DNA of 33,145 nt, taken from positions 73,962 through 107,106 of IMG/VR virus record IMGVR_UViG_3300021255_003500; one strand, given 5' to 3'. The translations under genes were made by a program, and so were the position numbers. Source of the stretch: a virus (lineage: Duplodnaviria; Heunggongvirae; Uroviricota; Caudoviricetes). Under the pieces are notes generated by a model, which did no database searches, was not told the DNA's origin, and saw nothing but the letters and a program-made list of their open reading frames with translations. Of the stretch, positions 12,049 through 33,145 are shown one piece after another. The stretch's first letter is position 1. Each line of letters starts with the position of its first letter.

Positions 12049-12119
12049 TGCGCGGTAGTGTAAAGGCAGCATATTTGACTCATTCTCAAAAGATCTAGGT
12101 TCGACTCCTAGCTGCGCAA
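12049..12119 (+). tRNA. tRNA with CAT anticodon (Met or Ile2), no encoded CCA
   Basis: Full cloverleaf: acceptor TGCGCGG/CTGCGCA, D stem GTGT/GCAT, anticodon stem TTTGA/TCAAA with loop CTCATTC, T arm CTAGG-TTCGACT-CCTAG. Confidence 0.85.
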
Positions 12120-12145
12120 CTAACTTTTTGGAGGTGTAGCCCTGT

Positions 12146-13789
12146 ATGGTTATAAAGCCAGGCGTGATCACCAATTGGGACCTGCTGGAAGAACAGGTTA
12201 TCTTTTACAGGACTCACCTGGATATCTTTATCGAAGACTGTATGCCACCGGTAAAACTGACTCGGGATCAGCATGTGATCGCCAGAGCTTTCGGCAATTG
12301 CGACGATATCAAAATCGTTCAAAGCCGTGGCTAGGGCAAGACGTGGCTGACAGCTCTGTGTTGCCATGCGCTATGCTGTCTGTATCCCGGAACATTGGTA
12401 GCCGTCTGTTCAGGTACAGCAGCGCAGGCTACGCTTGTTTTGGAAAAGCTTCGCCTGCTTGCTGATCAGAATCCAAATATTGCCAATGAATTATCCTCTG
12501 GTTCTTCTCGTGCTTTGGTTCAGTTATCGAAGGACAAAGGCCGGGCAAACTACAAGAACGGTTCCAAGATCGAGAGCTTCTCGATTGAATCCATGCGCGG
12601 CCAGCGTGCAAAGGTCGTCGTCGTAGACGAATGTCCTGAAGTGGATCAGGAACTGCAGGATGCCATCGTCTCACCTATCAAGAACTATCGGCGGGACATC
12701 TCCTTCAACTACGGATTCAAGGACTACAGTTCCAAGACGGTGAACATCACCTCCGCCTGCGAGAAGGCAAATTCATTCTATAACGAATTCAAACGAGTCG
12801 TTCGCGACATGGCGCAAGGCCGGCGTGAATCCTTTGCCTGTGCTCTGGATTACAACGCTGCGGTGGCGAACGGGATCACGTCCATGGAATACTTCATGGC
12901 CGAGAAAGCTAAGCTGCCGGATATCGTATTCCAGATGGAGTATGGCTCCAAGTTCGTAGGCGCCAATAACAACTCCGCCTTCCCCTATGAGCTGACGCAG
13001 AGCTGCCGGACGTTAACGAAGGTTGAGATGGAACAGCCGAAGAACTCCAAGTCACGGTATGTGATCTCTCTAGATATCGCAACCTCGGAAGCCAAGGACG
13101 CTGACAACTCCATCATCACAGTGCTGAAGTTCACAGAGCGAGCTGATGGTACCTTTGCCAAGAAACTGGTCTTCATCCGTTCCTTCCATGGGAAATAGCT
13201 GGATGTCCTGGCGGACGAGATCCGGGTATTGTATCATCAGAAATTCCCGAATACTGAACGGATCATTTACGATGCCCGTGGTCTGGGCGACAGTCTGGAT
13301 CGCTTCTTCGATAAGGAGTATGTGGATCTGACCACAGGCAAGGAGTATCCGCCTTTAGTCGTGGATGACATGATGAACCATAACGCAGCCGCTCTGCAGA
13401 TCCTGCATCCCTTCCGGGCTGTGCAGACATTGAACCAGCGGCTGTACACCAACCTTCGCGTCGCGTTGGAGAAGCGAACAATCGAGCTGCCAGTCAGCAG
13501 CCGGGTGATCCAATCCAGCGAAGCGGAGAAGGACAGTAAGAAAAGCATGAGCATGGAAGAGAAAGCGGTGTATCTGGAAACAGACGCACTGCAGTTTGAG
13601 ATGGGCAACATCGTTGCCAAGATGTCGACCAGCGGCCATGTGCTGTATGATACGCCCAGGAATTCCATGCATAAGGACCGTTACTCCTCTCTCGCTATGG
13701 CGGTGGACTATGTCAGCGAGATGGAGAAAGAGAACGTCAAGAAATACAAGCAAGGCGCTCCGGCTGTAGGTTTAGCCAGCGCATTCTAA
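12146..13789 (+). CDS. terL: terminase large subunit (two in-frame TAG read as sense)
   Basis: Walker A SRG*GKTWL spans TAG 12332; Walker B VVVVDE; nuclease SLDIA and KDRYSS; second TAG at 13196; TAA stop. Confidence 0.92.
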
Positions 13790-13804
13790 AGGGAGGTGTG
13801 CCCA

Positions 13805-15397
13805 GTGGGCTTATTTGATCGTTTCAGACGCAACCCGGTGGCGCAGCCTCCGGAGCCAGTCAAACGTCCAGTGGTGGACGTAGTTGGCGCAAACAGACGG
13901 GATGACGAGGAAGAAGAGAAAAACTTTCAGACCTTCAGCAATTCTAATATTACTTTCTCTGGAGAACTAAGCGGGTTTGATTATTAGAACATTCTCCGGG
14001 ATAAGCAGAACCATATTGTGGATCTATACAAACTGGCGGATTACTTTACGGATGCTGATCCCATTGTGCGCGGTATCGTACGCCACGTATATGTGCCGTA
14101 TACTCTATCTTCTCCCTGGGTCCTGAGTGGAGCCACAGAAAAGACGCGCAAGATCTACGAGGAATATTATAAGCGCATCCGTCTTCGGGAGAGGCTGAAC
14201 AGCATCTGCCTGGAATACTGGAAGTACTCCAACGTCTTCGTCTATATCATGAACGGGATCCCGATCACTCTTCCCGTGCACAAGTGCAAGATCGGCAGTG
14301 TATCTCTGAACGGAGAACCTATCGTTGACTTCGACTGCCAGAGCATCTACAACGAATGGAAACAGAAGAGCTACTCTGTGCAGGAGAACTGGATTAAGGA
14401 TAATAACCTGGAAACCTATTTTGCGGGCTATCCTCCGGAAGTGCAGGAGGCGCTGAACAAAGGCGCTCAATATGCACAGCTGAACCCGAAGTACACAAAG
14501 GTGCTTCAGGGTGACAAGGAAGGCTGGCACAGGTACTCAATCCCGTTTATCGCGGCGTGTCTGAGTGCGTTAGCCAAAAAGGAACTGATTGGTAAGTATG
14601 AGGACGCCGTGCTGAACCTGGGAATCCATTCCTTCGTACACGTCTCCTATGGTGACGAGAAGAAGGGTGCGGATATTCTGCCGGACATCAATCAGCTGCG
14701 TGCTGCCAGGTCTGTATTCTCCAAGGCCATGAACGGCTTTCCGCTGGCAGTGACCAATCAGCTGGCGAAGGCTACCGTGGTGCAGCCTAAACTGGATGAC
14801 CTGTTCCAGTTTGACAAGTATCGGGATGTGAACAACGACATCCTGTCTGCTGGTGGCATCAGCGGGATCATGGTCAGCGACATCAGTGAGGACGGTTCTA
14901 CTTTCGCTTCCGCGCAAGTGTCAGAGCGTACAGCTGCTGTCCGGATCGAAGCCGCCAGGGATGAGATCTGCGAACTGATGAATAAGATCAATGCGATCTT
15001 CCGGGAGTCCCTGGAGGAGGAGCATATCTATAATCTGAAAGAGGTACCTGAGTTCAGCTTCATGCCGCTGGATATGGCAGGACGCAAATCCCTGCGTGAT
15101 GCCTGCAAGGAGCTGTGGGAGCAGGGACTTGTGAGCACCGAGACCATGATGTCTGCTCATGGTTATTCGTTGGAACGGGAACGCGCCAAGCGCGAAGCCG
15201 AGGCTGCCAATGGGACAGACGAAATTCTGATTCCAAGAGATCAGATGAATCAGCAGCAGTCAGAAGAACCATCCGGCAATCCAGTTGGCAGGCCGGAAAT
15301 GACAGACGACGAACGAACGTCTGACCCCGCTTCTGCGATCAGAGGCAAGCAACCGAAACCTTCCAATCCGGAAGGAAGCATGGGAGACTCCGGTTGA
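13805..15397 (+). CDS. portal protein (one in-frame TAG)
   Basis: GGAGG RBS, GTG start, TAG at 13985 joins the two track ORFs; follows terL; about 530 aa. Confidence 0.85.
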
Positions 15398-15494
15398 TAA
15401 TGGTAATAACAGCCATTCGGCTGTTGTTATAGATTAGCTCGAAACATTCTTTGCCCCTACCATTGAATGGGAGAGAGCGTAAGGAGAAAGACCA

Positions 15495-16781
15495 ATGGAA
15501 AGAATAACAACTACCTTCATTGCGTCCGTTATCTCCGAAATTCAGCAGTCAGATATTTATCTGACGGTCAAAGCTCGGCTGTTCGAAACACCGGGAGCTA
15601 ATCTTAACGGTGTGAGAGTGACGCCTGCGTTCCTGGACGAGATCGTCCAGAATCAGGAGAAGTATGTCGGGCTGCCCGTGTGCGCAGACGTGAAAGCGTT
15701 AGCGAACGGGAACTATGAACACCTTGGTCATCTGTATGACGCTCGGACCGGTGAATTCCATTCTGCCCAGATTGGTTCCTTCTATCAGTATGAGAAAGAG
15801 GAAACAGCTGAAGGTGCGGCTCTGATCGGCTATGCCAGGATCATGAAGCGGAACAAGGCTGTCTGCAAAGCGATTGCTGAACTCTTTGCGGACAACGCGC
15901 TGAAGTTCTCCTTTGAGATCTCCTGTGGCAGTTATCGAGAGCTGGACGACGGGACACTGGAAATCGATGCCGGAGAGAACAACTTCCTGGAGGGTGCCGC
16001 AATCGTAACGTTCCCTGCGTGCGAGAATGCGGTGGCTCTGGATCTGGTGGCCGAGTGCAACAGTATTGCAGATGATTGCAGAAGGGGTGAGAACAAGATG
16101 ACGGACGAACTCCAGGCCTCCGTAAAGGAGGAGCCGGTGATCGCCGAAGCGGCTGAGACTGAAGCTGCCGAAGAAAACATCGTGGCCGAAGAGACCACGA
16201 AGGAAGAAGCGGTGGCGGAAGCTGAGACTGCCGAGACGAAAACCGAAACCCAGGAGACCGAGGAAGAAGCGAAGACAGATGTCGTCTCCGAAGCTTCTGA
16301 AGTCGCCGAAGTAATTGTTCGTGAGGAAACCTATACCGAGCATTCTGTGCATACCTATGATACAGAGACCGGTGTCGAAACTCATGATACGGTCACACAG
16401 CATTCTGAGATTGCGTCTCCGCTGGAGACAACTTCTATTGCTGAGACCGACCCAGAAGAAGAGAAGGATGACGAACCGGATGAGCCCGAAGAGCAAGAGA
16501 AGCCAGATGATGAAATGGCTGCCTGCGGGAATCCCGAAGAGGAGAAGGAAGATAAGTACGCCAGCGTTATTACTGAAATGCAGAGCATGATTCAGCAGCT
16601 GAAAGCCGAGCTGGACGAAATCAAGAACAAGCCTGAGCAGATAATCGCTGAGGCTGCTTCCAAATCCGCGAACGAAGTCAATCCTTTCCTGGCAGATATT
16701 GATACGAATGCCGGGCATAAGTATTCTCTTCTGGAGAAGGCTGAAAAGCCTTCCAGTTATTCGCTGCTGGACAGAGCGTAA
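15495..16781 (+). CDS. prohead protease / scaffold fusion
   Basis: N-terminal HK97-protease-like part (GHLY...KFSFEIS...AIVTFPA); long acidic E/T-rich C-terminus with a coiled coil. Confidence 0.75.
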   Translation: MERITTTFIASVISEIQQSDIYLTVKARLFETPGANLNGVRVTPAFLDEIVQNQEKYVGLPVCADVKALANGNYEHLGHLYDARTGEFHSAQIGSFYQYEKEETAEGAALIGYARIMKRNKAVCKAIAELFADNALKFSFEISCGSYRELDDGTLEIDAGENNFLEGAAIVTFPACENAVALDLVAECNSIADDCRRGENKMTDELQASVKEEPVIAEAAETEAAEENIVAEETTKEEAVAEAETAETKTETQETEEEAKTDVVSEASEVAEVIVREETYTEHSVHTYDTETGVETHDTVTQHSEIASPLETTSIAETDPEEEKDDEPDEPEEQEKPDDEMAACGNPEEEKEDKYASVITEMQSMIQQLKAELDEIKNKPEQIIAEAASKSANEVNPFLADIDTNAGHKYSLLEKAEKPSSYSLLDRA

Positions 16782-16797
16782 ACTGCCCAATATTACT

Positions 16798-16818
16798 GGG
16801 AGGCTCAGCCTCCCTTTT
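16798..16818 (+). terminator. possible terminator after the scaffold gene
   Basis: GGGAGGC-TCA-GCCTCCC then TTTT. Confidence 0.5.
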
Positions 16819-16838
16819 ACGTGAGGAGATGACAGCAC

Positions 16839-17267
16839 ATGGCTGGTTACATGACGGCCCTGCAGGGCTATGTGTATGAAGGCGAGCTGAAGAACGGCAA
16901 CGCGAATCCGATTGCCAACGGCATGCTCGTCGCTCCCAAGCTGTCCAATGGCGAACTGGTGATGGATCTGCCGACTGCGGATTCCGACACCAAGCTGCTG
17001 TGCAAGGAAGTTACCACGATCTACGATGGTATGCCTGCCTATCGTTTTATTGTGACTGCTCTGGGTAAGAAGGTTTATTTTGTTGAGAACGGTTTCGAAG
17101 TGAACACGGATGCCGAGTACGACACCACCACTTACACGACCGCTTCCGGCAAGTATCTGCGCGCTCATCCGCTGCTGGTGGGCGAAGAATTCGTCACCGA
17201 CCAGGTGAACGGCACCCCCGTCGTTGGTACGGAGTATGGCGTGCTGGCCACCGGTAAGGTGGGTTAA
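16839..17267 (+). CDS. head decoration / capsid cement protein
   Basis: 142 aa beta-rich protein between scaffold and capsid; strong C-ending codon bias. Confidence 0.6.
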   Translation: MAGYMTALQGYVYEGELKNGNANPIANGMLVAPKLSNGELVMDLPTADSDTKLLCKEVTTIYDGMPAYRFIVTALGKKVYFVENGFEVNTDAEYDTTTYTTASGKYLRAHPLLVGEEFVTDQVNGTPVVGTEYGVLATGKVG

Positions 17268-17281
17268 GGAGGTGAAAGACA

Positions 17282-18283
17282 ATGGCGGACATTAAGGTAA
17301 ATCGCGACAGCAAGCTGATCAAGGTGCTGGCTGCGCAGGCGAACCATGAGCGGGTTGATTCCTAGAATGCGGAGGAAGCCGCTCAGATCATTTCCGAGCT
17401 GACCGTGGATATGGGTAACGAAGCGAATCGGAAGCAGATTGCTCAGACCGTTGCTTTCACTGTGGACGAGCTCCAGAAGAAGGAACTGGATTTCCTGAAT
17501 CGCATCGCTGATATCAAGAACATCGGTTATAACGACAAGGCGATGTTCAACATGCGGACTGGCGGCATCAAGGCCTACATCCAGGCCAAGGGTGCTACCA
17601 CTAAGCGCAGCATGGTTGCGGATCGTCAGGTCTCTGTGGAGACTGTGGAGATCTCTGCCCGTCCCGCGATCAACATCGTGGATCTGCGTGCCGGTCGTGT
17701 GAACATGGCTGACCTGATCCAGGAAGCGAACCGTGAGATCACCAACAAGAAGCTGGCGATCGTGGAGAAGGTTCTGCATGATGCCATCGCGGACTTCGCG
17801 TCCCCCTTCTATGCTGCGGGTAGTCCCGGCATTGTGAAGTAGACCCTGGATGCGCAGCTGGCGTACTTCCGCCGGCTGGGTCCTGTCACCATCCTGGGCG
17901 ACCAGGCTGCTGTGTAGCAGCTGGCTCCTCTGACCGGTATGGCTATGAGCAGCACGCAGACCCAGTTCAGTCCCGAGCTGATTAACGAGCACAACGGCAA
18001 CGGCTTCATTGGCCGGTATAACGGTGTGGACGTGATCTCTCTGACCAACAGCTATTTCGATGGCACCACGACTCCTGTCCTGGCTACCGACTGGCTGTAC
18101 ATCATCCCTGGCGGCATGTCCGGCGATACCCGTAACCTCAAGATCGTCAACGAGGGCGGCGTGAACAGCATCGACAGCCAGAACATCGATGACATGGTGT
18201 ACGAGATCCGTCTGGATCAGTGGTTCGGCGCTGCGTTCGTGAGCGGCAAGCTGCCTACCATCGGCGCTTATAAGATCAACTAA
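17282..18283 (+). CDS. major capsid protein (three in-frame TAG)
   Basis: GGAGGTG RBS; TAG at 17363, 17840, 17915 join the fragments into 333 aa; C-terminus IRLDQWFGAAFV; TAA stop. Confidence 0.85.
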
Positions 18284-18300
18284 TCACAGTTGCGAATACG

Positions 18301-18331
18301 AGAGAGGGGTTTCAGCCCCTCTCTCTTCTCT
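18301..18331 (+). terminator. probable terminator after the capsid gene
   Basis: GAGAGAGGGG-TTTCAG-CCCCTCTCTC then TTCTC. Confidence 0.6.
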
Positions 18332-18356
18332 CGCAATGAAGGAAGAAGGATAAGGT

Positions 18357-18824
18357 ATGGAAATGATGAACGGCTACACGGAGCCAACCTTCCGTGTGTA
18401 CAATGAATGCAAGTTTGATATCGGTGTGACCACGACCCGTGGCACACAGTATAACATTCGTCCCGGCAGCTTTGCTATGCTGACTGCTGCGGACATCGAA
18501 TACATCGAAAGCGTCTGCCAGACGACAAAGTTCTTTGGCACAGGCATGCTGGTGCCCAAGGATGCTGCAGGTAATGCAATTCCTCTGGATAAGCTGAACA
18601 TCGTGGAGGCGCCAAAGGAAGAGCGTATGATGACAGACGAGGAAATCATGGCAATGCTGAAAAAGACTGGCAAGCAAATGGAAGCCTGGCTGGATGGGAT
18701 CGAGGATCCAGTAAAACTTCATGCAATCTATGATGTGGCAGTGAAGATGGATCTGCCTGCCAGCAAGCTGAAGATCCTGAATGGCAAAATGCCAAACAAG
18801 GATTGGCTTGACGCATTTAACTAA
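18357..18824 (+). CDS. hypothetical head-associated protein
   Basis: 155 aa directly after the capsid gene; TAA stop. Confidence 0.7.
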   Translation: MEMMNGYTEPTFRVYNECKFDIGVTTTRGTQYNIRPGSFAMLTAADIEYIESVCQTTKFFGTGMLVPKDAAGNAIPLDKLNIVEAPKEERMMTDEEIMAMLKKTGKQMEAWLDGIEDPVKLHAIYDVAVKMDLPASKLKILNGKMPNKDWLDAFN

Positions 18825-18844
18825 GACAGAAAGGAAGTGGCGGC

Positions 18845-19276
18845 ATGACGAATATTACAGAGCTTGCCGTACAGCTGCAGGAGCTGACAGCCTGGCAGCG
18901 TACGCCAGAGCCGTTGTCCCAGGCGGATTACGAGAAGATGGTGATCAGCGGCATCAAGACCCTGTACATCGATACAGGCCGCGCTTCTCGATATACCAGT
19001 GTTTCCTTTGAGACTGACACCGAAACCGGTAAATCATATTTCAGCGACGATCTTGGGATCGACGAGGAGAAGTATGTTTTGCTGGTTGCACAAATCGCAT
19101 TCTTTAAAAGGGTGCAGACCGATGTGAACAACATCGTTTCCTACACCACGGATGCGCTGTCTGTTGCAAACGCAGATAAACCGTACGGGCATTTGCAGGA
19201 TACGATTGGAGCACTGGAAAACGAACGTCGGATTGTATTCTACAAGATGACGGACTATTCATTCTATAACGCTTGA
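18845..19276 (+). CDS. putative head-tail adaptor
   Basis: 143 aa helical protein; position in the head-tail joining block. Confidence 0.55.
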   Translation: MTNITELAVQLQELTAWQRTPEPLSQADYEKMVISGIKTLYIDTGRASRYTSVSFETDTETGKSYFSDDLGIDEEKYVLLVAQIAFFKRVQTDVNNIVSYTTDALSVANADKPYGHLQDTIGALENERRIVFYKMTDYSFYNA

Positions 19277-19278
19277 GG

Positions 19279-19626
19279 GTGAACAGATTGATCAATGATT
19301 TCAAGGTGAGGGTAGATCGCAGGTAGCCGGACGGCGCTCTGTGCAACACGGAGCTGAAGCCGCTGGTATCCTACACAGATGCCGTGGCTTATCGTCTGAA
19401 GCGGATCCTTAATGACGTGGAGAATCTGTGCTGCGATCTGGAAGAAACTTCCAACAAACTGGACTGGAGTCCGGAGACTGCTGATGCTTTCGGTAAGATC
19501 CGTCATCTGCTGCTGAACGCGGCGAATGATGTGCAGCGTCTTCCGAACTCTCTGTATTATCAGAACGTGCCATGCAATAACATGAATATCAGTGAGATGC
19601 TGGCACAGCTGATTAACCGTCAGTAA
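19279..19626 (+). CDS. hypothetical morphogenesis protein (one in-frame TAG)
   Basis: GTG start next to the upstream stop; MNRLINDFKVRVDRR*PDG reads through TAG 19324 into the track ORF at 19384. Confidence 0.65.
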
Positions 19627-19643
19627 GAAAGGAGCTGGCGCAG

Positions 19644-20372
19644 ATGCCGAAACCATATGTGCCAGCAGGCACAAAGACCAGATTCTATCGTCCGCCAACG
19701 CTGGCGTAGGACTTTACTGAATTCCTGGATGGGAATATCCCGCATATGGTCATGGACTTCACGATCTTCAAAGACTGGTATGCCCAGTTTGATGAAGGCT
19801 ATGAACCCTCCGTGATCCGTGGAGAATTCTATGCGGATACAGCCAAAAGCCGCTACAGCAATACAGACAACCATGTAAACATCCGCTGTGACGTAAACAG
19901 TGGTCTTCGCAAGGGCGATATGCTGATTGCCAGCGATACAAATGATGTTTATATCTCGGACTGGAATGTGATACTGCAGGCAAATAATGCACCATCCAGA
20001 TTGCTGCTGTGCAATTTCGACCTGACAGTCAAACGCTATCAGCCTGAGAAGGTAGACGAATTGGGCTACCTGATTGAACCGGAAGGCTGGAGAACAATCG
20101 TAGATGCACTGCCGGCTAACGCATACTTCTATGATGGGCGTACGTCTTCATACTACATCAACTCCGGCAACCCGGGTATCTCTCCGGAAGTTATCGCTCT
20201 GGTGACCATTCAGCTGAATAGGCAAACCAGGGACATCCGCATCGACGACGAGTTCGAATGGTGCGGGGATATCTACCGGATCACCGACATTTCCTGGACG
20301 AACGTGGATCGTTCGGCAAGCTATGGCTGTCTGATGCTGCAGGCATCGCAGAAGGCCGGTGGTATTCTGTGA
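19644..20372 (+). CDS. putative head closure / connector protein (one in-frame TAG)
   Basis: AAAGGAG RBS, MPKPYVP start, TAG at 19707; beta-rich. Confidence 0.65.
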
Positions 20373-20659
20373 TCGACATCAAAAGTGTGGTTATGGAGAA
20401 AGCCAAAGAAGCGCTGCAGGAACGTATGAAGTCAGTTGCTGCGGAGCTGAAGGAGTATGTCCTGAATGAATTCATCGTGGATCTTCCGCAATGGTCGCAG
20501 GATCTGTACGGTGAAGAGCTGCAGGATATTGAACCTACGATAGAATTCGACGGTGAAATGTCCGGCAGGGTAATCTTTAATTTAGATCATCTGCCAGACA
20601 AGTTAAAGGAACTGTTTGAATACTATATGGGCAATGCGAAACTTCGGGCTGTGGGGTGA
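20369..20659 (+). CDS. putative neck / tail-component protein
   Basis: GTG start overlapping the upstream TGA; 96 aa. Confidence 0.6.
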   Translation: MIDIKSVVMEKAKEALQERMKSVAAELKEYVLNEFIVDLPQWSQDLYGEELQDIEPTIEFDGEMSGRVIFNLDHLPDKLKELFEYYMGNAKLRAVG

Positions 20660-20665
20660 TGAAGG

Positions 20666-21142
20666 ATGCCTGTGACGACATGGATCCGGGACTGGAACGA
20701 TGTAATCCGTCAGGTTATCTGGCCTGACGAGGAACTGAAATCGCTGATGATGATCCCGGAAGGCACCAACATCATCAGCTTCATAGACAAGTATTTTATC
20801 CGGGCGGGATATACAAACACGCTTCTGGAACACGAAGATGTGCGTATTGTTTATTCCGATCTGGGCGGTGAGGATACAGCCGTTCCCAATGTAAAGAAGA
20901 ACGAGCTGTGTTTCGATATCTACGTTCGTACCGAACACCTGCATACCGTAGGGAATGATCGGCTGCAATACCGCACGCAGCTGATCGCCAATCGTCTGAT
21001 TCAGCTACTGACGAAGAATGGCAAAGATGGTAAGTATTTGGGCGGTTATCGTTTCTGGGTTCGAAAGGAACAGGATCTTGGAACGAGAACTGCCGGATAT
21101 GTGCGGTATCATGTATCCTTTAATTACATGAAGGTTTACTGA
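20666..21142 (+). CDS. putative tail terminator / completion protein
   Basis: 158 aa just before the tail tube; FDIYV and YHVSFNY beta strands. Confidence 0.6.
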   Translation: MPVTTWIRDWNDVIRQVIWPDEELKSLMMIPEGTNIISFIDKYFIRAGYTNTLLEHEDVRIVYSDLGGEDTAVPNVKKNELCFDIYVRTEHLHTVGNDRLQYRTQLIANRLIQLLTKNGKDGKYLGGYRFWVRKEQDLGTRTAGYVRYHVSFNYMKVY

Positions 21143-21214
21143 TGATAAACGCTTGTGAGTAGGGCGCAGCGTTTTTCATATAATCCAAACAAACTATGAA
21201 AGGAATGATAGCTC

Positions 21215-22000
21215 ATGGCAACTTATCTTGCTCCTCTGAAGGGCTATATTGCCGATGTGCCTCACGTCTGGTTTAAGCGCTGCGATGGTCGTATTTTCTA
21301 TTTCGATGAGATCACCCAGGCCAACGTGACGCCTAACGCCAACTTCACTGAAGTGAACGCTGGTTGGTAGTCTTTCCCTGTGGCTTATCTGCCCGGCCAG
21401 TCTACCATGGAAATCTCCCTGACCTCTGGCCAGTTCAACGCTGACCTGTTTGCTCTGGCCAACAACCGGTCCTTCGCTCCTCAGGCGTATGACCTGTACA
21501 TGACCGAGACCGTGACCATCGTGAACAACAAGGCCACCCTGGCTCATGTCGCCAAGGCCGGCACTGTGTCTATCGCTGGTCTGGAAGAGGCCACTACTGC
21601 TGCCGAAGGCAAGTTTGCCGTGGCCGATGTGGATGCTACCGAAACCGTGCCTGCGCACACCGAGATCACCTTCGTCGGCGAAGAGGGCGAAATTGAGATC
21701 TCTTATGAAGTCACCGTCGCCGACGCTCAGGTCATCGAGGTCGACAACAAGAGTACCGCTATCGGCTCTGCCCTGTTCCGCTGGCCCGTGTACGGTTCTT
21801 CTGAGGACTGCACCGACTCCGCGATCAAGGGTTATCTGAACATGAAGGTGTATCGCTGCCGCGTCACCCAAATGCCTGGTTTCGATACTTCTTACAAGTC
21901 TGCGGCCACGAATGCCGTGACCTTCTCTGCGATGGATGCGAAGCGGGCCGACGACGCCGTGTACAGCCTGGTCTACGTGCCGAAGTCTGCTCTGGACTAA
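21215..22000 (+). CDS. major tail (tube) protein (one in-frame TAG)
   Basis: GAAAGGA RBS, MATYLAP start, TAG at 21368; strongly biased codons; C-terminus SAATNAVTFSAMD. Confidence 0.75.
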
Positions 22001-22076
22001 TCAATGAAAAGAGTTCTTGTTATAAGGTTTTAAAAGGTTGAAGCAAGAGGCTCTCCTGGGGACTGCCTCAATACAG

Positions 22077-22100
22077 AAAAGGGGTAGTCCCCTTTTTTAT
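22077..22100 (+). terminator. probable terminator after the tail tube gene
   Basis: AAAAGGGG-TAGT-CCCCTTTTTTT. Confidence 0.6.
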
Positions 22101-22125
22101 ACATTTTTTGAAAGAAGGTTGAGAT

Positions 22126-22662
22126 ATGCCGGTTTTAGGTAAAGACATTCCAGAGCCAAGCACAGAGAAAAAGCCTGTTCCCAAAAAGACAGCTCTGGAT
22201 AAGAATCTTCCTGAAGAAACAAAACTCAATAAGGAAATGCCGGAAGGCAAAGTACTGAACAAAGAAATGCCGGAGGGCAAGGCTCTGGACAAGCCTATGC
22301 CTCCGGAAGTCAATCCAGATAATGTAGTCGTGATCGGTGGCAAGGAAATCGAGATCAAGTCTACCAAGATCAAGTACCAGCGGAACGGTACCGCTACGGC
22401 TTATCGCATTCTGGATCTGTATCCGCTGCCGGACATTCTGTCTATGGATGCAGGTGTTCTGGATGCCAAGCGAGACGGAGATCAGATCGTTTTCGATTTT
22501 CTTGTTGCGGTGTTTGATGACAGCAAACTGGTTGCAAGGTATTATGACACAATGACTGCGGATGATATCGACCGCTGTGTCAAGATATTCAAACGTCTCA
22601 ATCATATCGATGAGAAGGAAGAGGCCGCAAAAAACCGGCAAGCCAAGGGGATGAGCAACTGA
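22126..22662 (+). CDS. tail assembly chaperone (G-like)
   Basis: Follows the tail tube; ends just after the slippery site A AAA AAC (22629-22635). Confidence 0.65.
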   Translation: MPVLGKDIPEPSTEKKPVPKKTALDKNLPEETKLNKEMPEGKVLNKEMPEGKALDKPMPPEVNPDNVVVIGGKEIEIKSTKIKYQRNGTATAYRILDLYPLPDILSMDAGVLDAKRDGDQIVFDFLVAVFDDSKLVARYYDTMTADDIDRCVKIFKRLNHIDEKEEAAKNRQAKGMSN

Positions 22663-22970: not shown

Positions 22971-23059
22971 AACAGACACGAGACTGTTGCAAAAGGTAGG
23001 GACTCCGTCAGGACATTTGCTGCGCAACAACCACCGCCATCAAGTAATTGTCGATTTTG

Positions 23060-23164
23060 TTACTTAAGCAAGCGGATGATTTCGACAACAAACAGAACCA
23101 ACTAAAGAATCTTTGCAGCAATTTTCGTTGTGCGTTTCATCTTTTTGTAAGTCTTCTTTTTCAT
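23060..23164 (-). CDS. 34-aa cationic/hydrophobic peptide, type I toxin-like (one TAG)
   Basis: AAAGGAGGTG RBS; MKKKTYKKMKRTTKIAAKIL*LVLFVVEIIRLLK then TAA. Confidence 0.75.
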
Positions 23165-23369
23165 ACGCAGCCACCTCCTTTGTGGTAATTGGGGGGCGGT
23201 GGTTGCATACGCGCAGTCTCGTGTCTGCTATATCAAAATATCACACGCTACGTAAAAACACAATAGTCAGATTGCTTAACAAAAAAACAGATGCGGAACT
23301 GTTGCAAGAGGTAGGGTCAATTGCTGCGCAGTAACCAGCGCGGTATGTGCAAGTGATAACGTGCGGTCA

Positions 23370-23474
23370 TTACTTGAACAAACGTATGGTTTCAGCGATC
23401 AACGACAAAAACTATACAATCCTAGCTGCAACCTTTAAGCTGCGCTTGATCTTTTTGTAAGTCTTTCTCTTCAT
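23370..23474 (-). CDS. 34-aa paralog of the previous peptide (one TAG at the same codon)
   Basis: AAAGGAGGTG RBS; MKRKTYKKIKRSLKVAARIV*FLSLIAETIRLFK then TAA. Confidence 0.75.
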
Positions 23475-23577
23475 GTGACCACCTCCTTTGCAAGCAGTAG
23501 AGATGGTTACATACGCGCAGTTTCGCATCTGCCACTTCAATATAACACAACTATCCTCAAAAAGAAAGAAGGATATT

Positions 23578-23886
23578 ATGGACAGCAGAGAGTTCCTGGA
23601 CACAGCGCGTTATGCCGTGGTCCAATATCTGAAAGAATATGCACCTGATGTCAAGATCGGCGACACATTTGTTGTGTGGAGCTGCAAAACTTTGCAGAAT
23701 AACAAAGCTCTGATTGAGACAGATGTTGATGCGTCTTATTATGAGGTAACCTTCAACGGAGATCGGGAAGAACTTTATCTGGATGTTTACGAAAAAGACG
23801 ATCATATTTGCATCCCGCTCGGGGACAATGAAGAACCCGTAAAGCCGGATGAAAATCATCGGGTAATCACAGGGATCCGTCACTGA
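23578..23886 (+). CDS. DUF6275-like phage protein
   Basis: FVVWSCKTLQNNKAL...YYEVTFNGDREELYLDVY is the motif I associate with this family. Confidence 0.7.
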   Translation: MDSREFLDTARYAVVQYLKEYAPDVKIGDTFVVWSCKTLQNNKALIETDVDASYYEVTFNGDREELYLDVYEKDDHICIPLGDNEEPVKPDENHRVITGIRH

Positions 23887-23896
23887 GGTGAGGCAG

Positions 23897-24154
23897 ATGA
23901 ACAGCAATCAGTTTCTGAAGTCAGCAAAGAAAGCGGTGCTGAAGTATATTAAGGAAGAACTCTATCCGGATACTTAGCTGACGACAGAAGAAATATATGT
24001 GATCACCATGTTCGGCAACCAGGTAATGCTCGGTACGGGGCTGCTGGATCTCATTTTTTATGAAGTCATTCTGGACGAAAAAGAAAACACGCTGAAGCTT
24101 CGCGTGTTTGATCTGATGGAAACAGAAACCTACCGGAATGACGAAGTACAATAA
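23897..24154 (+). CDS. diverged paralog of the DUF6275-like gene (one TAG; not in the ORF track)
   Basis: GAGG RBS; MNSNQFLKSAKKAVLKYIKE...FYEVILDEKENTLKLRVFD aligns with the upstream gene; TAG at 23975; TAA stop. Confidence 0.65.
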
Positions 24155-24240
24155 CCTATTCCTGCTTGAGCAGGCAGAACCTGAGTCGTGTTACATAATC
24201 GCCTAGAATGCCTGAGAAATTCCGTTTACCTTAAAGGCTA

Positions 24241-24342
24241 TCATCTAAACAACTATATAACGAAGTGCAAAAGAAGCTAACCGATAAAGCTGGCCAGAAC
24301 GTTGGAGATGAACGTTTTGACTTCTTCTCTTTTAAACTTCAT
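24241..24342 (-). CDS. 33-aa hydrophobic peptide, type I toxin-like (two TAG)
   Basis: AAAGAGGGTG RBS; MKFKREEVKTFISNVLASFIG*LLLHFVI*LFR then TGA. Confidence 0.7.
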
Positions 24343-24501
24343 GCAATCACCCTCTTTCGAAAGGCAATTACACAAGACGCTCAGGTTCTGTCTGCACGGC
24401 TATTATTCGACAGTGGTTTACTTATTCCTGCTTGAGCAGGCAGAGCTTATCGCTTACATAGTCGCCAGAAATCCGGGAAACAAGTTGGTCTTAAAGACTG
24501 G

Positions 24502-24594
24502 TTATCTCAGCAACTATGAAATCAGGTTCCAGATCATCTATGCCAGAACGCCGGCAAGGACGTTCATGGCGAAGCTGATGAGTTTCTTACTCAT
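24502..24594 (-). CDS. 30-aa paralog of the previous peptide (two TAG at equivalent positions)
   Basis: AAAGGAGGTG RBS; MSKKLISFAMNVLAGVLA*MIWNLIS*LLR then TAA. Confidence 0.7.
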
Positions 24595-24652
24595 GCAACC
24601 ACCTCCTTTTAAGGCGACTGCATGAAGCGATAAGCCCTGCATGCACGGCTAT

Positions 24653-24681
24653 TATATCTAATCATAGGAGGAAACACAATG
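24653..24681 (-). promoter_or_regulatory. sigma-A-like promoter for the fourth peptide module
   Basis: Minus strand TTGTGT-17 nt-TATAAT. Confidence 0.5.
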
Positions 24682-25044
24682 ACATATTTTGATCTTATTA
24701 ACAACGCAATCGATTTGTGCATTACGGTTGACAGCACTACGGGTATGGCCTATCTTGAGCCTCCGTATCGGATGCTGCTTCGGGAAGCTGATCTGATCCA
24801 TCCGGAGATCATCGAACCGGAAGAACTGTATGAACTTCTGAAGCTGGAAGTTAAGAAGCAGAACGCCAAGGTCAATAAGTCCTATGCAGTGTCTGAATGG
24901 CTGCATGATATCATAACGCAGACTGTTGATCCAGCGATGACTCAGGAAGAGAATGAGTTGGTGAAGAATTTGCTGGAGTATATGAGAAAAAACGAAGAAT
25001 TAAAATCAGATGAACAGAAACGTAGTGCTGAAGATGGAGTATGA
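24679..25044 (+). CDS. hypothetical protein
   Basis: 121 aa, AGGAGG RBS, TGA stop. Confidence 0.7.
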   Translation: MTYFDLINNAIDLCITVDSTTGMAYLEPPYRMLLREADLIHPEIIEPEELYELLKLEVKKQNAKVNKSYAVSEWLHDIITQTVDPAMTQEENELVKNLLEYMRKNEELKSDEQKRSAEDGV

Positions 25045-25055
25045 AGTTGAATATA

Positions 25056-25841
25056 TCAGTCTTCTACGTTTATTTTTAGGTAATTGAAATCAGGTATTTT
25101 GGGTTCTAATTCATAAGTTTTTTCTTTAAAAACTAATGGTTCATGCTTAAACGTTACATAATCACTAATGCCATTTTTCGTTGTTTCTGTTACTGTGTAA
25201 CCATCAGCATATGTGATAGTATGGGTAATCCATTTGCATTTGTCAACATCTGCAAATGCTCTTACATCTGTTCTTTCTTCTATTTTATGGATAACAAGTT
25301 CTACAGATCCCAGATAATACGGGGTAAGATCTACTATAACATTCTTTGATTTACACAATGTTTCAAGACGGCGTAACATTTTTACTCTCGTGTAGTCTTG
25401 AAATCCAACTGGCTTGTAGCGTAAACTATCATTCCATAACGGTGTAGAAACGTCTGCTGCCTTCCATAATTCACGAGCTGTAGTTTCGCCATTACGAGCA
25501 GCAATGATTTTGGTATTATCAGGTAGTCTTTTGATAAAATCATAGAATAATTCTAGAACGTTGTATTCATAACCGTAAAAACCGTTGTGTGGATATCCAT
25601 CAGCTTCGCAGTATTCGATTATATATTTCCATTTATCTAGGTTGTTAGGATCTCTTACTTTGCGTCTATAATGAGTATGGCGGTCGCATGTGAACACATT
25701 ATTATTGTATATTAAAACAGCAGTATTCCAACCTTTATACTTTACATCCATATGTTTATATGGTGATCTGAAGATGTTTTCTGCATGGTCGATATAAAAA
25801 TCTTTGGTTGTAACTACTTTATCGATCATCTGGTTTGTCAT
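25056..25841 (-). CDS. AT-rich hypothetical protein (moron-like)
   Basis: 261 aa, GGGAGG RBS, TGA stop; opposite strand to the late operon. Confidence 0.75.
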   Translation of the reverse strand: MTNQMIDKVVTTKDFYIDHAENIFRSPYKHMDVKYKGWNTAVLIYNNNVFTCDRHTHYRRKVRDPNNLDKWKYIIEYCEADGYPHNGFYGYEYNVLELFYDFIKRLPDNTKIIAARNGETTARELWKAADVSTPLWNDSLRYKPVGFQDYTRVKMLRRLETLCKSKNVIVDLTPYYLGSVELVIHKIEERTDVRAFADVDKCKWITHTITYADGYTVTETTKNGISDYVTFKHEPLVFKEKTYELEPKIPDFNYLKINVED

Positions 25842-25931
25842 ACATACCCTCCCTTGTGTAATATATATTATATTACCTTGGCTTATTTAATTTGTCAACT
25901 CAAAGTACATATTGGAAGGAGGAAATTTCCA

Positions 25932-28900
25932 ATGTCAGAAAAAATAGAATTGGAATTTGTGGCAAATTTACAATCTGCTATTTCTGATTTAGAATCATTT
26001 CAAAGTAAGGCAAATGATGTATCTTCTGAATTCGGCAATCAAATCTCGTCGGTTCTATCTAAAACGAACGATCTATTAACACAGAATAATTCTGCTATCA
26101 ATGATTCACCAATTGAATATCGCTCTTATATGGATACAATTTCTGCTACAATTCATTCTTTAACATAGTCACTTTTATCTGATACTAAAGCATATGATTC
26201 AGGTGCTCTGTCAAAAGATATTCAAGAGCAACTACGTAGTAGTATCTCGTAGACTATTGGCATGATTATGTCCAGCTTACAAGATGCAACTTTCACAAAA
26301 TCAGCCATTACAGACATTCAAGCTAAAATAGCGCCTGAGATGGTAAAAGTATTTACGTAGAATTTTTCAGATTTATCAAGAGCAGCAGGATCTATTATGA
26401 GCCAAGCTTTTGGTAGAGGAAGTAAACCATTATCTGATAATGAGTGGTTGAAGACATTGCAATTAAACAAGAATATGCAAGCAGGTTTGACTGCTATGGG
26501 TACAAGCACTGGACTCAGTGATGCTGATTTAACAAGGCTTATGCAAGCAGTTGTCCGTATGAATCCTTTTATTATGCGTGCAGATTCTATTGCAAATGCA
26601 GCAAAGCATTCAAATGGAGCTATTAAAATACCAAACATTGATCCTGAATACTTGCGTTATCAAGATCGTCTTCCTGCTATTTACCAAAACTTGGAAACCA
26701 ATCCTCAAATACAGTCATTAACAGGAAAGCAAAAAACTGCATATTCAGGCAATCTCACAAAGCAAGCATATGAATTAGTAAGAAGCGTCGCAGCACAAAA
26801 CGCAGCTTTTGAACAGGCTTTGCAAATGGCCGGTTTAGCAACTCGCTCAACTAGCAATGGTCAAGCTGGGGCGTTGCACATGCCAAGCAAACCTATATCA
26901 ACGCTTCAATTAGCCAGAGCACTTGGTCATTTACATAAAGATGTTATGATTCCAGCCTTAGAAGGAGAACCTCAGTGGTATCGCAGTATCGTTTCAGCTG
27001 ATCCGGATGATGTTCGCAGAATAGCAAACAGTAATAATAGAAGTGTACGTGATTCAATTAGTGCAATGGAACAACTTGCTGTACTCGGTATTCAACCTGT
27101 GTACACAAGAGCTAAGCCGAGATTGGAAACTCCAGGAAGTTTCAATGTGGTTGCTAACAGTCAAATTGTCTCCAATCCAAACAGATATCAAATCATGAGT
27201 TTAACATGGGATGATTTTAAAAAAGGAAGAATTTTAAATCCAAATGGAGAAGCGCAAAGTGAATACGAAGAAAGGCCGCGGGGCGTTTCTATTAACAAAA
27301 TGATACAAGAATCCGGATTCACAAGGCTTCTTGGAATGTACGGCAATAACACTCTTGGAAATGGGAGTAAAACAGACTATGGTCGACCAAAGATGTTGCA
27401 GATAGACTTTTCAAAGCAAATGTTTGAGACTGATAAAAACGGTCATTTGATATGGGAAAACGGTCAACCAAGAGCAAATGAAGAAACTCATAAGATCATC
27501 AATCAATTAATGGCAAAAACAAAAACAATACCAGGCACATCTCATCAATATGCAGTGACTCCATTCGGAAATATGGGAGGATATGTGCCTACTAATTTTA
27601 AAAATGGCGTTGTATCACTGGTTCCTGAAGATGTTTATGTAGCACAAACAAATGCATCGTTAAAGTAGTTAGGCGTACCGATTTTTGAAAACTTTACGCC
27701 AGGAGATTATGTGTTTTCTACCGCAGATAAGTCAAATAAGAATCTTGAAGCACGAAACAGAGATCTAACTCCAACAGTACCTATTGAACGGTTGGGAGGC
27801 CGGCTGCCATCAAAAAGCAAAATAGCTTTCGTTGATTTGAAATCAATAGAAGGTTTGTTACCCGGTCAGAAAAAAGATGAGGTTACCGGGTTAGATGGTG
27901 CATCATTCTTTATGCCAGGTTATATACCAGGAAATAATGCAACATTTCGCGTTGGTGGAATGAAAGGAATAGCTGCAACAGTTGACTACAAACAGATGAT
28001 AAGAGATTTGTACGGCGTTGATCACATGTATGTTCCTGCAATAAATGCTTCCGAAGAAACGAAAAAATTATACAATACAAAAGGCATACAAGCTGTTAGA
28101 GATAAGCTGACAGAAGAAGAGTTTTCAAAACAGATGCTTGACATTATGGAATATGATGCTTTAATAACAGATTCAGTCATTAAGTCTCCGTTATTTCAAA
28201 ATAAAAGCAATAAAGAAGCACAGGACGTATGGCAAGAATTAGTATCTACGCCGCTTGGTTTCGGTATAGGAAAAACAGGCAGTCAGTTTATTTCTAGGAA
28301 GAGCAGCCTTGGAAGACAAATGTAGCAAGCTTTAGATATGACAGATCGTCAACTTGACGCAAATAAAAAAGCTTGGGATCGTTATATAGGTGAATTATGG
28401 AACGATCCTGTTAAAACAGCGCAAAGGTTATTTACGGATGAAGATAATTCATTAGATAAGAAAATCAGAGATAATCCTGCTCTGATGTGGTCTGAGCCAT
28501 TAGCTCGTCAACGAGTTATGGATGCCATTCAAGAAGCACAAATCTCTAGATTGAACAATGAATTATTCTCAGAGAATGGTGCTATGATGGGATTGGCTGT
28601 TCCAAATGCTGCTGAGCAAATTATAAAAATCGGTCAGAAAAACGGTTTGAGAATAAGAAACAAACATCTCGCAAATATTCTTTCTTTAAGATCGCAAGAT
28701 AACGCAGACGGCACATACGCCGGTTTAGCCGCTGGCTTTTTATCGGATCCAAATGTTGGAGCAGGGCGTTGGCCAGCTGTCCCAGGAGAGCAGTATTTAG
28801 CGTATCTTTCTAAAGAGTATCTGAAAGCAGGACGGAAGTATGGGCTAACAGATGATGTTATATACACCAATATGGATACTATCGCTAAAATGGGCGGTGG

Positions 28901-31900
28901 CGATGTTGATGGTGATACCATTCAGCTTTTGAGAGAAGATTTATATAGATATGTCCAATCCACATATCAAGGGCGTACAAATAAATACGGTAAAAGAAAT
29001 CCAGACATAAAGCCAACAGCAGAACAAATCCAACAGGAAAACAACTACACGCCAAGGAGTCAGACACCAGAAGATATATATAAGTTGATGTTTAGACAAG
29101 CTGTGTCTCAGATTAAGATGGGTTCTATATCTAGGGCGCAGGACGCATTGGCTACTATCAACTGGAATGATCCAGAAATGGTTCGACAGTACGGTCAAGC
29201 TGCAGCAGATTTAGCACAGTTATACGATGTTGACAGCACGTATATGAAGACTGGTGTTGCAGGAAAATGGACTTCATATGCTCATAAGGCTAGAAAACTT
29301 GGTCGTCCTTTCAGTCATGTATTCAATAATTTAGTTGGATCAATACAAAATAATGATTTTGAACGTTTAGGCAATTTTGCAGAAATCAACTTTCCTAGTC
29401 GATTCCACGGATTAACCGCTTCAGCGTTGTCATCTGTTGCCCAAACTCCACTGTCTAATCGTGTGATCGAGCAAATGATAGAAGCACAAAATGACTTGCC
29501 TGTATTTAACGGAATGAGTGCCAATCAATTAGCTGCATTAGAAGATCCTTTGTCTCAAGCTCAGGCAGCGTATTACAAAAAGAACAATGAAATATTCGCC
29601 AAGCTTCTGACGCAAGGCGGAGTCGTTGGCTTAGAAGATAAGGAAACACTTACTGCACTTCTTCAGAACTGGAAGAGTCATAGTTTTACTCCCCTGCAAT
29701 CGGAGGACCAAAAGAAAGCACTTGATCTCCAGCAATCTCGTTTGAATTATCTAAACATGCTTGGTTTAGTTGAAGGTAAAACCGATGGATATATGAAGCT
29801 ATTTGATGGTTTACGTACTACAAGTGATGCTTCAGCTTTCGGAACGTCTTTTAACGCATCTCGAGATCAAGAAAGAATTAACCAGGCTATAGCTGTTGGT
29901 TTGAATCCAACAATGGTTGCGGCCACGCAGTCTTGGGGAACAGCACAGCAAATAGCGCAAGCAAAACAACGAGCTTATAATTAGACATATAGCTACTCGC
30001 AACTTATGTCATTAGAAAAGAATCCTCAAGAGTGGTATGAACGTTACGTAGAAGGTAAAGAATCTGTATCTTCTCCTCAAGCTCATATTGGTAATGCCAT
30101 TGATTTAACCATGGGACAATGGGCTGAATTTAAAAGAAAGCATCAAAACGAAGGCACTCCAATGCCTGATACTGAATATTTTCAAAAGTTCTTCGATAAT
30201 ATTATTACTGGACAATTAGAGCCAGCAGAAGCTTTAATCGACGGCGTTCAAGATGTTTTAGCTGCAGGTAAGCATTGGTTTAAAGACGGTGTTGATAAGA
30301 ATAGTCCACATTATGAAAGGTATTTAAGAGCAAGACAAGCCGCAGGTATGTTTACAGAACGGTTTAAGGATTGGCAAGTATATGAAGTAGATGATCCAAA
30401 TCATCCTGGCCAAAAAAAAGCAAGTTATCAAATGTTACGTCATCCAAATTTCGGTGATTTGCCAGATGGGTCAGGACAAATTAAATCAGTAGGATGGGTT
30501 GATCTTGGGTTAATAGATCCCCAAGGACGAAAGGTCGATTTTGACTTAAAACCGATTAGAGATTATTGGCATATAGAATCATAGGATCCTAATCGTAGAA
30601 TGGGTGTCCGCGACCAGTTATATTCGTATCAATCTTCCAGGCCAGGCGCCTTTAACGCAGATCGTCTTGGTGTAATTTCCTATAATGAAAAAGGTGGATT
30701 GCAGACAAACGTTTGGGATTTTAATCCAGCTGAAAGAGAAGCGGTAGAAAAACGACTTCAAGGTATCGCAGCTCGTCGATTTGCTTTTGCAGAACAAACT
30801 GGCGACTCTATATTCGCATTAAGAGCTGGTATGTTAAACCCATATGGATCGCAACCAAATGGATCGCAGTTTAATATTAGAAACATGAGAGATAGTGGGT
30901 TTGATCGCTTGCAATATGAAGCAAACCAAAAAGCAACAGAAGATGTCTATCGAGAGGCTCGTGAAGAAGAAGAAAGAAATATAAGAAATGAAGGAGCTGC
31001 TGCTAGGCGCAGGATGAGTAAAGACACCGGTACGGCCATAGCAGAAGCAATGAGTTTGCGTCAAGATATTAAAGCATTTGAAAATAGTTGGGATGAATTT
31101 AATCAGCAAATGCAAGGAGATCTTAATAGAAGAACTAAAGATCGTAGTTACTCAAAATGGGTCGGTTATCGATCACGCATCCATGAAGGTTATGAAGAAG
31201 AGCGCAACGCTCTTTTGGGAAGAGGCGCAGACGCGCAAACATTAGCAACCGCTGCCGAAAAACATGAACATGCTTTAGAACAATACAGGACCGCTTTACG
31301 TGAAGCTGCAACCGGAGATAAATCAGACGCCATTCAAGCAGGCTCACATATTGAGGATTTGATGGGATCTGCTTACGGTAATAAAAAACTAAGCGGTATT
31401 GCAGATGGCTTTAAGCAAATAACACAAAGCATTCAGCAGGCACAATAGACATACGAAGTGTTTGAGAAAGAAATCAAAGATAAAGGAACAAATAATATAA
31501 CAAAAGAAGACCAATCTGCTTTAGACAAAGGATCTGAGCAGTTGAAAAAACTATCCGAGCAAGGTTAGAAATATCAAACAATACTGTAGCAGCAAGCAAT
31601 TAACGTTTCTAACTCTGCGTTAGATTCATTATATGCTTCACAATCCGGAGCTCGTGCATAGACTATTCCTTTAAAAGATAATATCAAAGCCGATCGAATG
31701 ATGGAATTATTTGGGCTGTCTTAGAATTTTAAATCATTATTAGACAATCATATAATTGATAATGACGCATACACTAATTTTATGCAAAGACTAGCTACAT
31801 TACAATAGCCGGAAGCCTTAGAGCAATACGCTGCATTGAGAGCACAAGAATCTGCAGTTAAAGATAAGTATAATGAAGATCTGGCTAAAATACGATTACA

Positions 31901-33145
31901 ACAAGCACAATTTGGTACATCTGCTTATGACCGTCAAGCTGCAGCAAGGGATAGGCAAAATCGTTATCTGTATAGCAATTCTGCATTGACTCAAGCTTAT
32001 CTTCGTCGTCGATCTATGTATGATTCATATGCTTCATTAAAAGAAGAAGCAACAATTGGGGCAGGAAAAGCAAAAGCAGATCAAGATTTATACAAAGCAG
32101 AGATGGATAAATACTATGACCAAGATGGGAAACTAAAACCAGGGGTCAATGAGCATGATGCGAACATGGCTAAATTTGGATATAGCACAGCAACAGAAAA
32201 CCTAAAGAAATATAATCGGCAACTTGAAGATGCCAATGAAGGGATGAAACGTTTTAGTGGATTTGGAAATTTAGTTGGAACATCTCTTGAAGCGATGAAT
32301 AAAACCTTGGATCATACTATACGTATGTTCAGTCATCGCTTCTTTATGGCTGCTATTCGTGAAGCAACCCAATTTGTCAAACAATATGATGCTTCAATGC
32401 GGCAGATCCAGGCGATCACTTACAAAACAGACGAAGAGATGGCATCTATCCGTTCTGATACAATCGATAAAGCAATTGAGCTTAAAACATCTGCAACTAA
32501 CGTGGCTGAAGTTGAGGCATCGTTGTATCGTCAAGGTCTTGGAGACGCAGAAGTAAGAGAACGTACAGATGCGATCATCAAATTCTAGACTGTTACTGGG
32601 CAGAAAGTTACTACAGCTACAAAGGGATTAACAACAGCTATTCAAACTGGACTTGTTGATAATATCTACGAAGCAATGGATGCATTAACCGCGCTTGGTG
32701 ATCGAGCTGCGACAACAGCTGAAGAGATCGAAAAGGGTATGCAGAAGTCTGCGGCGGCTGCTGCTAATGCAGGTGTCAGTTACAATGAATTAAACACCAT
32801 GCTGACAGTTATTACCAGTAAGACTCAACTTGGTGGTGCTCAAGCCGGTACAGCTCTGCAAACATTGTTCAGCCGAATGAACCGTGTCACAAAGGCTGGA
32901 TATATAAACGATGAAGGCGGCGAAGCAACTTCCATTAATGATGTTGAAAACGCACTGAAGTCTGTTGGTATTCAAATGAGAGAAGGATCCGGGTTCAGAA
33001 GCAGCACAGCCATACTTCGCGATCTTGCAAAAGTTTGGAACGACATCAATGATCTTCAGAGAGGCAACATAACATACGCAATGGCTGGTGGTCGTCAGCA
33101 GAATATGTTCCAAGCTTTAATGGAAGGTATGGCTGAAGATAACGG
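25932..33145 (+). CDS. giant tape measure protein carrying a two-barrel RNA polymerase domain and a PD-(D/E)XK nuclease domain (14 in-frame TAG; continues past the window)
   Basis: GGAGG RBS, MSEKIELEFVAN start. One frame to the window end with only TAG interruptions. RNAP motifs 27.9-29.3 kb, nuclease motifs 30.1-30.6 kb, TP901-type tape-measure core from about 32.3 kb. Confidence 0.85.

Follow-up and report, generated by a model that had tools for sequence, protein, structure and literature searches.

In-frame TAG triplets of the virion module

The DNA analysed here (the window) is a stretch of 33,145 nucleotides (nt) forming the end of the 107,106-nt single-contig virus record IMGVR_UViG_3300021255_003500, and the subject is the meaning of the amber triplet TAG, which occurs in frame in its terminase, capsid and tail genes. 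With contig ends that overlap by 107 nt, the genome closes into a circle and is complete. Its virion module is SPbeta-like, with homologues matching the YonB capsid, YomX and YomU families and a gene order that also matches. Among cultured phages, the nearest terminases share 25-32% identity, the closest terL being that of Clostridium phage c-st (32%). Window positions are used below unless a genome or locus is named, and the + strand genes carrying TAG are the following (lengths in amino acids, aa).

12146..13789, + strand: terminase large subunit, 547 aa, PHROG terL families; TAG at 12332 (codon 63, Walker A) and 13196 (codon 351)
13805..15397, + strand: portal protein, phrog_2739 portal; TAG at 13985
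17282..18283, + strand: major capsid protein (YonB-like), homologues with PF27364 YonB; TAG at 17363, 17840 and 17915
19273..19626, + strand: gene of the head-tail region, no function assigned; TAG at 19324
19644..20372, + strand: connector-like gene, homologues match YomX_C weakly; TAG at 19707
21215..22000, + strand: tail tube-like protein, phrog_2729 virion structural protein; TAG at 21368
23897..24154, + strand: small DUF6275-paralog gene adjoining a DUF6275 gene; TAG at 23975, no usable homologue column
25932..33145 (continues), + strand: giant tape-measure gene, PF10145 match; 14 window TAGs (26166 to 32586)

An earlier note on this DNA had proposed that TAG is a sense codon, probably for glutamine, in the late genes. 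Its count of 30 in-frame TAGs was exact, with 24 in these eight genes and 6 in four minus-strand peptides described below, and its sense-codon claim was borne out: homology runs on past the TAGs, all 24 internal stops of the + strand genes are TAG, and internal TAA or TGA is absent from these TAG-bearing genes. As TAG accounts for just 16.5% of the stop triplets in shifted frames of the same genes, a result of 24/24 has a probability of ~2e-19. The first terminase TAG (12332) does sit inside the Walker A loop. The tape-measure gene crosses the genome origin and reaches 6593 aa and 36 TAGs in total.

Assembly error, raised beforehand as a possible objection, is not supported as far as tested. 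Contigs from an RNA library of the same sample showed zero mismatches at six TAG sites (13985, 17363, 17840, 17915, 19707 and 21368), those of a second study, perhaps of a related sample, match at 17363, 17915 and 21368, and TAG also stands at a shared position in a relative of 85% identity that comes from a different sample. The expectation that standard annotation would shred these genes also proved right, since in public gene calls terL, portal, capsid and tube are each broken up. Re-calling with translation table 15 opens the frames, but any residue would do so, which leaves this operation silent on identity. All called genes do end in TAA or TGA, as had been reported. This is weak evidence, because relatives without recoding end only 4/174 checked genes in TAG, compared with 0/24 homology-checked gene ends here.

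Serine as the probable residue

Column profiles were built from ~118 related loci without in-frame TAG. The terminase homologue search used a query with Q at the TAG site and the capsid query had S at the sites; three loci 100% identical to the window, probably from the same sample (L254-L256), were not counted as independent. Among 120 homologues, the Walker A column (terL codon 63) contained S73 F25 Y11 A10 Q0, the best 25 all having serine, and the column of terL codon 351 contained P48 G33 T16 K12 S7 A3 Q1. The three capsid columns, likewise with 120 homologues, gave D57 A20 N17 S3 Q1 (17363), A86 N12 S10 T9 Q0 (17840) and S45 G40 A29 Q2 (17915). Elsewhere the residues were D22 V18 T7 S4 Q2 in the portal (13985), N31 G2 S1 at 19324, A25 S11 G1 at 19707 and S27 G1 in the tail tube (21368), the most conserved of the TAG columns. 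In the giant gene, two TAG sites were well aligned, 28323 (S, A, A) and 32586 (A9 S5 Q0).

Over the nine usable window TAG columns, the log-likelihood (lnL) was +8.1 for Ser, -1.4 for Ala, -1.7 for Gly, -9.2 for Thr, -14.0 for Gln and -15.8 for Lys. The same procedure called 61/61 sense codons correctly. When nine real Gln codons were resampled, Ser was top in 0/20,000 draws; with nine real Ser codons, Ser was called in 99.4%, and for real codons of Ala, Gly or Thr this happened in 0.24% of draws or fewer. Genome-wide, 20 columns, of which two or three lie upstream of start codons, gave Ser +11.5 and Gln -20.7. In three pooled Ser-type genomes, Gln-majority columns were found at 2/31 TAG sites versus 239/487 Gln codons (p 9e-7) and 21/777 Ser codons (p 0.22). 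Between two 90%-identical Ser-type relatives, TAG swaps with TCG four times, with AGT once and with CAG once.

These columns, together with the tRNA described below, argue that TAG is read as serine in this phage, with a probability that we put at about 0.92; it would then be a rare seventh serine codon. The glutamine assignment of the earlier note is not retained: the tally of homologue residues that it had itself named as a possible refutation favours serine, and the tRNA(CUA) of the genome is of the serine type. Its Q-rich contexts also lost their value as a clue, because Gln makes up 6.9% of the residues next to TAG in the giant protein versus a background of 6.0%, and site 28323, of the Q-flanked type that had been cited, aligns to Ser, Ala and Ala. 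Neighbouring-residue composition was rejected as an uninformative indicator of the residue.

The suppressor tRNA, rightly predicted to lie outside the window, was found at genome C1 36162-36246 on the minus strand, directly upstream of a tRNA-Ser(UGA) and in tandem with it. With the anticodon masked, this neighbour is its best match among 139 phage tRNAs (76%), and its 5-bp long variable arm is drawn like that of the neighbour. The Rfam alignment assigns it G1-C72 and the discriminator G73, with CCA not encoded, ARAGORN drawing one extra C-G pair outside G1-C72. Bacterial tRNA-Ser identity involves the long variable arm, G73, G1-C72 and G2-C71 (PMC9976931).

Neither the release factor 2 (RF2) nor the glutaminyl-tRNA synthetase (GlnRS) that the earlier note had suggested looking for was found in the complete genome, in which no RF-1 or PCRF domain (PF00472, PF03462) was detected, nor any class IIa, Glu/Gln or PF01409 synthetase core, leaving no Ser-, Gln- or Pyl-tRNA synthetase. 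A weak PCRF match in the relative G015 was discarded, as it lies inside the tape-measure gene and below the cut-off. A promoter scan near tRNA(CUA) returned nothing on the tRNA strand, and an Rfam DUF3800-XI RNA motif occurs at L001:6403-6449 (-), ~150 nt upstream of the tRNA.

Several points weigh against serine. Usable columns exist for only ~11 of the 30 window TAGs and are missing for most giant-gene sites and all peptide sites; alignments of the giant gene to 14 relatives are too divergent outside the two sites given above, and a search of its core against viral contigs gave no matches. Ser-majority columns occur at 10/31 TAG sites versus 395/777 ordinary Ser codons (p 0.045), and one capsid TAG in the Ser-type genomes G015 and G003 faces Gln in 113/120 homologues. 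The tRNA(CUA) has U2-A71 and not the G2-C71 of most bacterial tRNA-Ser, a pair not kept in these phage tRNAs, since tRNA-Ser(UGA), with C2-G71, also lacks it. If each TAG were read through with 95% efficiency, 16% of tape-measure chains (36 TAGs) would be full-length, and no inhibitor of release factor 1 (RF1) was identified; a gene with 36 TAGs thus implies either that suppression is very efficient or that RF1 is blocked by some factor.

The competing explanation that survives best, although we regard it as unlikely, is mixed decoding, in which TAG would yield mostly Ser with some Gln, arising from mischarging or from near-cognate reading, with RF1 terminating some chains. It would accommodate the TAG in the invariant-Gln capsid column of G015 and G003, and it gains from the report that two acceptor-pair changes switch an E. 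coli amber tRNA-Ser to Gln (PMC9976931), the studied tRNA(CUA) having G3-C70 and G73 and lacking G2-C71. However, the Gln excess at TAG columns over Ser codons is not significant (p 0.22, above), this genome has zero Gln-majority columns, and CAG-to-TAG transitions tolerated as Gln-to-Ser account for the Gln-facing TAGs.

Glutamine throughout, as in code 15, is the reassignment usually met in phages (Borges preprint 10.1101/2021.08.26.457843), and GlnRS recognises U35 and can charge some amber suppressors (PMC9976931). It is nevertheless very improbable here: Gln is the majority residue in 0/11 deep columns of this genome versus 53% for real Gln codons, its lnL lies 22 below that of Ser, none of the 20,000 resamples of Gln codons gave Ser as the top call, the genome lacks GlnRS, and the G1-C72 and long arm of tRNA(CUA) differ from the U1-A72 and short loop of the phage's own tRNA-Gln.

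We attach as little weight to another small residue or to pyrrolysine. Several columns are Ala- or Asp-majority, but the lnL values of Ala, Gly, Thr and Lys all fall short of that of Ser, and tRNA(CUA) lacks a G3-U70 pair. Pyrrolysine is suggested by the ARAGORN label 'Pyl' and by the CUA, G73 and G1-C72 that tRNA-Pyl likewise has; against it, the PF01409 synthetase core is missing from the genome, and a long arm with standard D and T loops is unlike tRNA-Pyl. That the TAGs are true stops, in decayed genes or through assembly errors, has practically no probability left, given internal stops that are TAG in 24/24 cases (P 2e-19), homology continuing beyond each of them, concordant RNA contigs and a complete circular genome with a dedicated tRNA(CUA).

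Distribution of TAG and a possible mechanism

With TAG taken as serine, its share of serine codons is 50/1264 in the + strand late genes versus 5/776 in the replication arm (p 1.6e-6), and within the former 36/571 in the giant gene and 14/693 in the other + strand genes. The GC content falls from ~52% to 33-42% at the giant gene (window 25000-33145), whose GC at third codon positions is 0.31 versus 0.61-0.66 elsewhere; the enrichment is partly confounded by this AT-rich gene and weakens to p 0.02 when it is left out. Endolysin-like and holin-like genes carry one TAG each. The earlier note had placed the TAGs in the late genes, which stands as an enrichment but not as a confinement, since some nuclease-like genes of the minus arm and all six of the peptides described below have TAG. 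A DNA-polymerase-like gene is in two pieces separated by an AT-rich nuclease-like open reading frame (ORF) with TAGs, at genome C1 ~52350-53376 (-), likely an intron with a homing endonuclease.

This distribution would fit the following scheme. The phage encodes a tRNA with the CUA anticodon on a tRNA-Ser body, which, by known identity rules, the host seryl-tRNA synthetase (SerRS), blind to the anticodon, would charge with serine; the phage genome yielded no matching synthetase. The resulting Ser-tRNA(CUA) would compete at UAG with host RF1, the phage carrying no release factor. Replication genes, nearly free of TAG, could be made at once, while the terminase, portal, capsid, tube, tape measure, lysis proteins and toxin-like peptides would become full-length only after the tRNA has accumulated.

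The four minus-strand peptides of the window, 30-34 aa long and each preceded by a Shine-Dalgarno-like site, are the following.

23060..23164, - strand: 34-aa basic/hydrophobic peptide, type I toxin-like by anatomy; TAG at 23104 (codon 21)
23370..23474, - strand: paralogous 34-aa peptide; TAG at 23414 (codon 21, same as its paralog)
24241..24342, - strand: 33-aa hydrophobic peptide; TAG at 24279 and 24255
24502..24594, - strand: 30-aa hydrophobic peptide; TAG at 24540 and 24516

Two more at L001 ~2120-2230 and ~3700-3810 (+) bring the number to six. All six carry TAG, at matching codons within pairs, and TAG makes up 8/18 of their serine codons (8 TAG and 10 other Ser; p 3e-7 versus late genes). 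A search for peptide homologues in relatives gave none that were significant. By their sequence features, the six look like type I toxins that might be gated by the suppressor.

As to the immediate context of TAG, the following base was considered as a sign of read-through selection and rejected as inconsistent, with p 0.02-0.04 here and 0.13-0.9 in other Ser-type genomes. C is depleted directly before in-frame TAG in the recoded genomes G000, G015, G003 and G001 (in G000, 5/62 versus 26% before Ser codons), which suggests CTAG avoidance. In the giant protein, a 9-residue tandem repeat has TAG at every unit boundary (L002 ~1800-1900, residues ~2978-3005).

Code states in the family and in other phages

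The SPbeta-like family to which the phage belongs holds three states: no in-frame TAG, TAG as Ser and TAG as Leu. Most loci have no in-frame TAG. The column test called Ser in G015, G003 (L025), L020, L121 and L170, and Leu in many loci, including G001 (71 columns, Leu +109.5, Gln -112.1) and G002 (83 columns, Leu +111.0). The type of tRNA(CUA) agrees with the column call in 9/9 loci having both: the four Ser loci have G73 and a long arm and the five Leu loci have A73, two of the latter with a short arm and one resting on a single column. Short-arm A73 tRNAs(CUA) of Leu-type loci lie at L156:4252-4330 and L162:7024-7099. Three relatives with complete or near-complete genomes that show no in-frame TAG also lack a tRNA(CUA).

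The states are scattered over a terminase tree of 79 rows (quick LG+G4, unrooted, one gene, short TAG-free loci left out) and need at least nine changes on it. Holding the six Ser rows together was rejected (p 0.015), as was holding together four Leu rows chosen after viewing the tree (p 9e-82). Repeated switching of TAG meaning is likely, bearing in mind that this is a quick single-gene tree and that phages recombine. Ser, Leu and standard phages stand side by side at 65-75% terminase identity, and tRNA-Ser and tRNA-Leu are the two kinds of tRNA that are charged without regard to the anticodon. We lean towards TAG meaning being a swappable one-gene trait, the suppressor, based on tRNA-Ser or tRNA-Leu, having been acquired, lost or exchanged on several occasions. 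In that case Bacillota gut phages would not follow TAG-to-Gln as a rule, and many 'code 15' database entries would be mistranslated. A phage code change may need just one tRNA gene if the host synthetase ignores the anticodon, and the standard, Ser and Leu states form a natural series for tracing the steps of codon capture. We know of no NCBI table with TAG as Ser on a bacterial background.

UAG read as Ser and as Gln has been described in phages with a matching tRNA(CUA) and RF2 (Ivanova 2014, Science 344:909, as recounted in the review PMC4695839). In both the Ser-amber phages of that account and the present phage, UAG is Ser through a phage-encoded Ser-tRNA(CUA); they are said there to encode RF2, whereas our genome contains no RF-1 or PCRF domain. 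The phage is thus amber-recoded but not code-15, and its way of working is that of the 2014 Ser-amber phages, minus RF2. What the present analysis adds is calibrated late-gene columns and, for a single family, matched states of Ser, Leu and standard decoding. A phrase search of partial literature for 'reassigned to serine' with phage gave no match, and one for TAG-to-Leu in phages, of similarly partial coverage, found no publication, which does not prove novelty.

Surveys after 2014 observe or presuppose Gln alone for TAG. In the Borges preprint (10.1101/2021.08.26.457843), only TAG-to-Gln and TGA-to-Trp were observed in phages differing from the host code, a view that this family runs counter to. 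The code-15 gut phages (crAss-like, Lak, Agate, Garnet and Topaz, 10.1101/2021.08.26.457843; phAss-1, PMC10607447) share with our phage a suppressor tRNA(CUA), an enrichment of TAG in genes for structure and lysis, clade members that keep the standard code and, for most of them, the lack of a dedicated synthetase. Unlike these phages, which use Gln, the studied phage uses Ser and its sister phages Leu; Gln columns are missing and the suppressor has no tRNA-Gln body (G1-C72 and long arm, not U1-A72 and short loop). The body is that of the E. coli supD-type amber suppressor, a tRNA-Ser with CUA that is serylated since SerRS ignores the anticodon. Work on amber tRNA-Ser is summarised in PMC9976931. 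Here the gene is a natural phage gene, essential genes depend on it, and G2-C71 is lacking.

Phage pipelines translate recoded TAG as Gln (PMC8008677, 10.1101/2022.06.29.495998, PMC13037316). For this genome the default is wrong, table 15 giving the wrong residue at ~60 sites. It is demonstrably wrong for a relative too: database protein P0002 (L169) was translated with TAG as Q where 118/120 homologues have Leu, and P0125 is another database protein with Q where homologues have Leu.

Runs of gut metagenomes contain the studied sequence, and a related strain occurs in bovine gut; runs in which the word share was small were left out of the habitat assignment. Family members are present in Clostridia metagenome-assembled genomes and in gut or rumen metagenomes; a tRNA search in the Clostridia genomes gave chance matches only. 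Gene order and virion-module protein families are those of SPbeta-like siphophages of Bacillota (YonB, YomX, YomU), the difference from cultured phages being the low terminase identity given above. The provirus G016 (L191, IMGVR_UViG_2936390555_000003), without a match to the studied terminase, has a Ser-type tRNA(CUA) and in-frame TAGs in terminase-like, tail and tape-measure ORFs; it may represent TAG as Ser in a second family.

A stretch around a YonO-like DxDGD motif is common to the N-terminal region of the giant protein (window 25932-30200) and the product of a 1059-aa minus-strand gene (6022-9201). The match in the DxDGD region has a BLASTP E of 3e-6, the motif being as in YonO-like RNA polymerases, and the stand-alone gene contains no TAG. 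A tRNA(CAU) lies at 12049-12120, 26 nt upstream of terL, and in several recoded relatives (L025, L094, L097, L099 and L121) this position is taken by a tRNA-Met(CAU).

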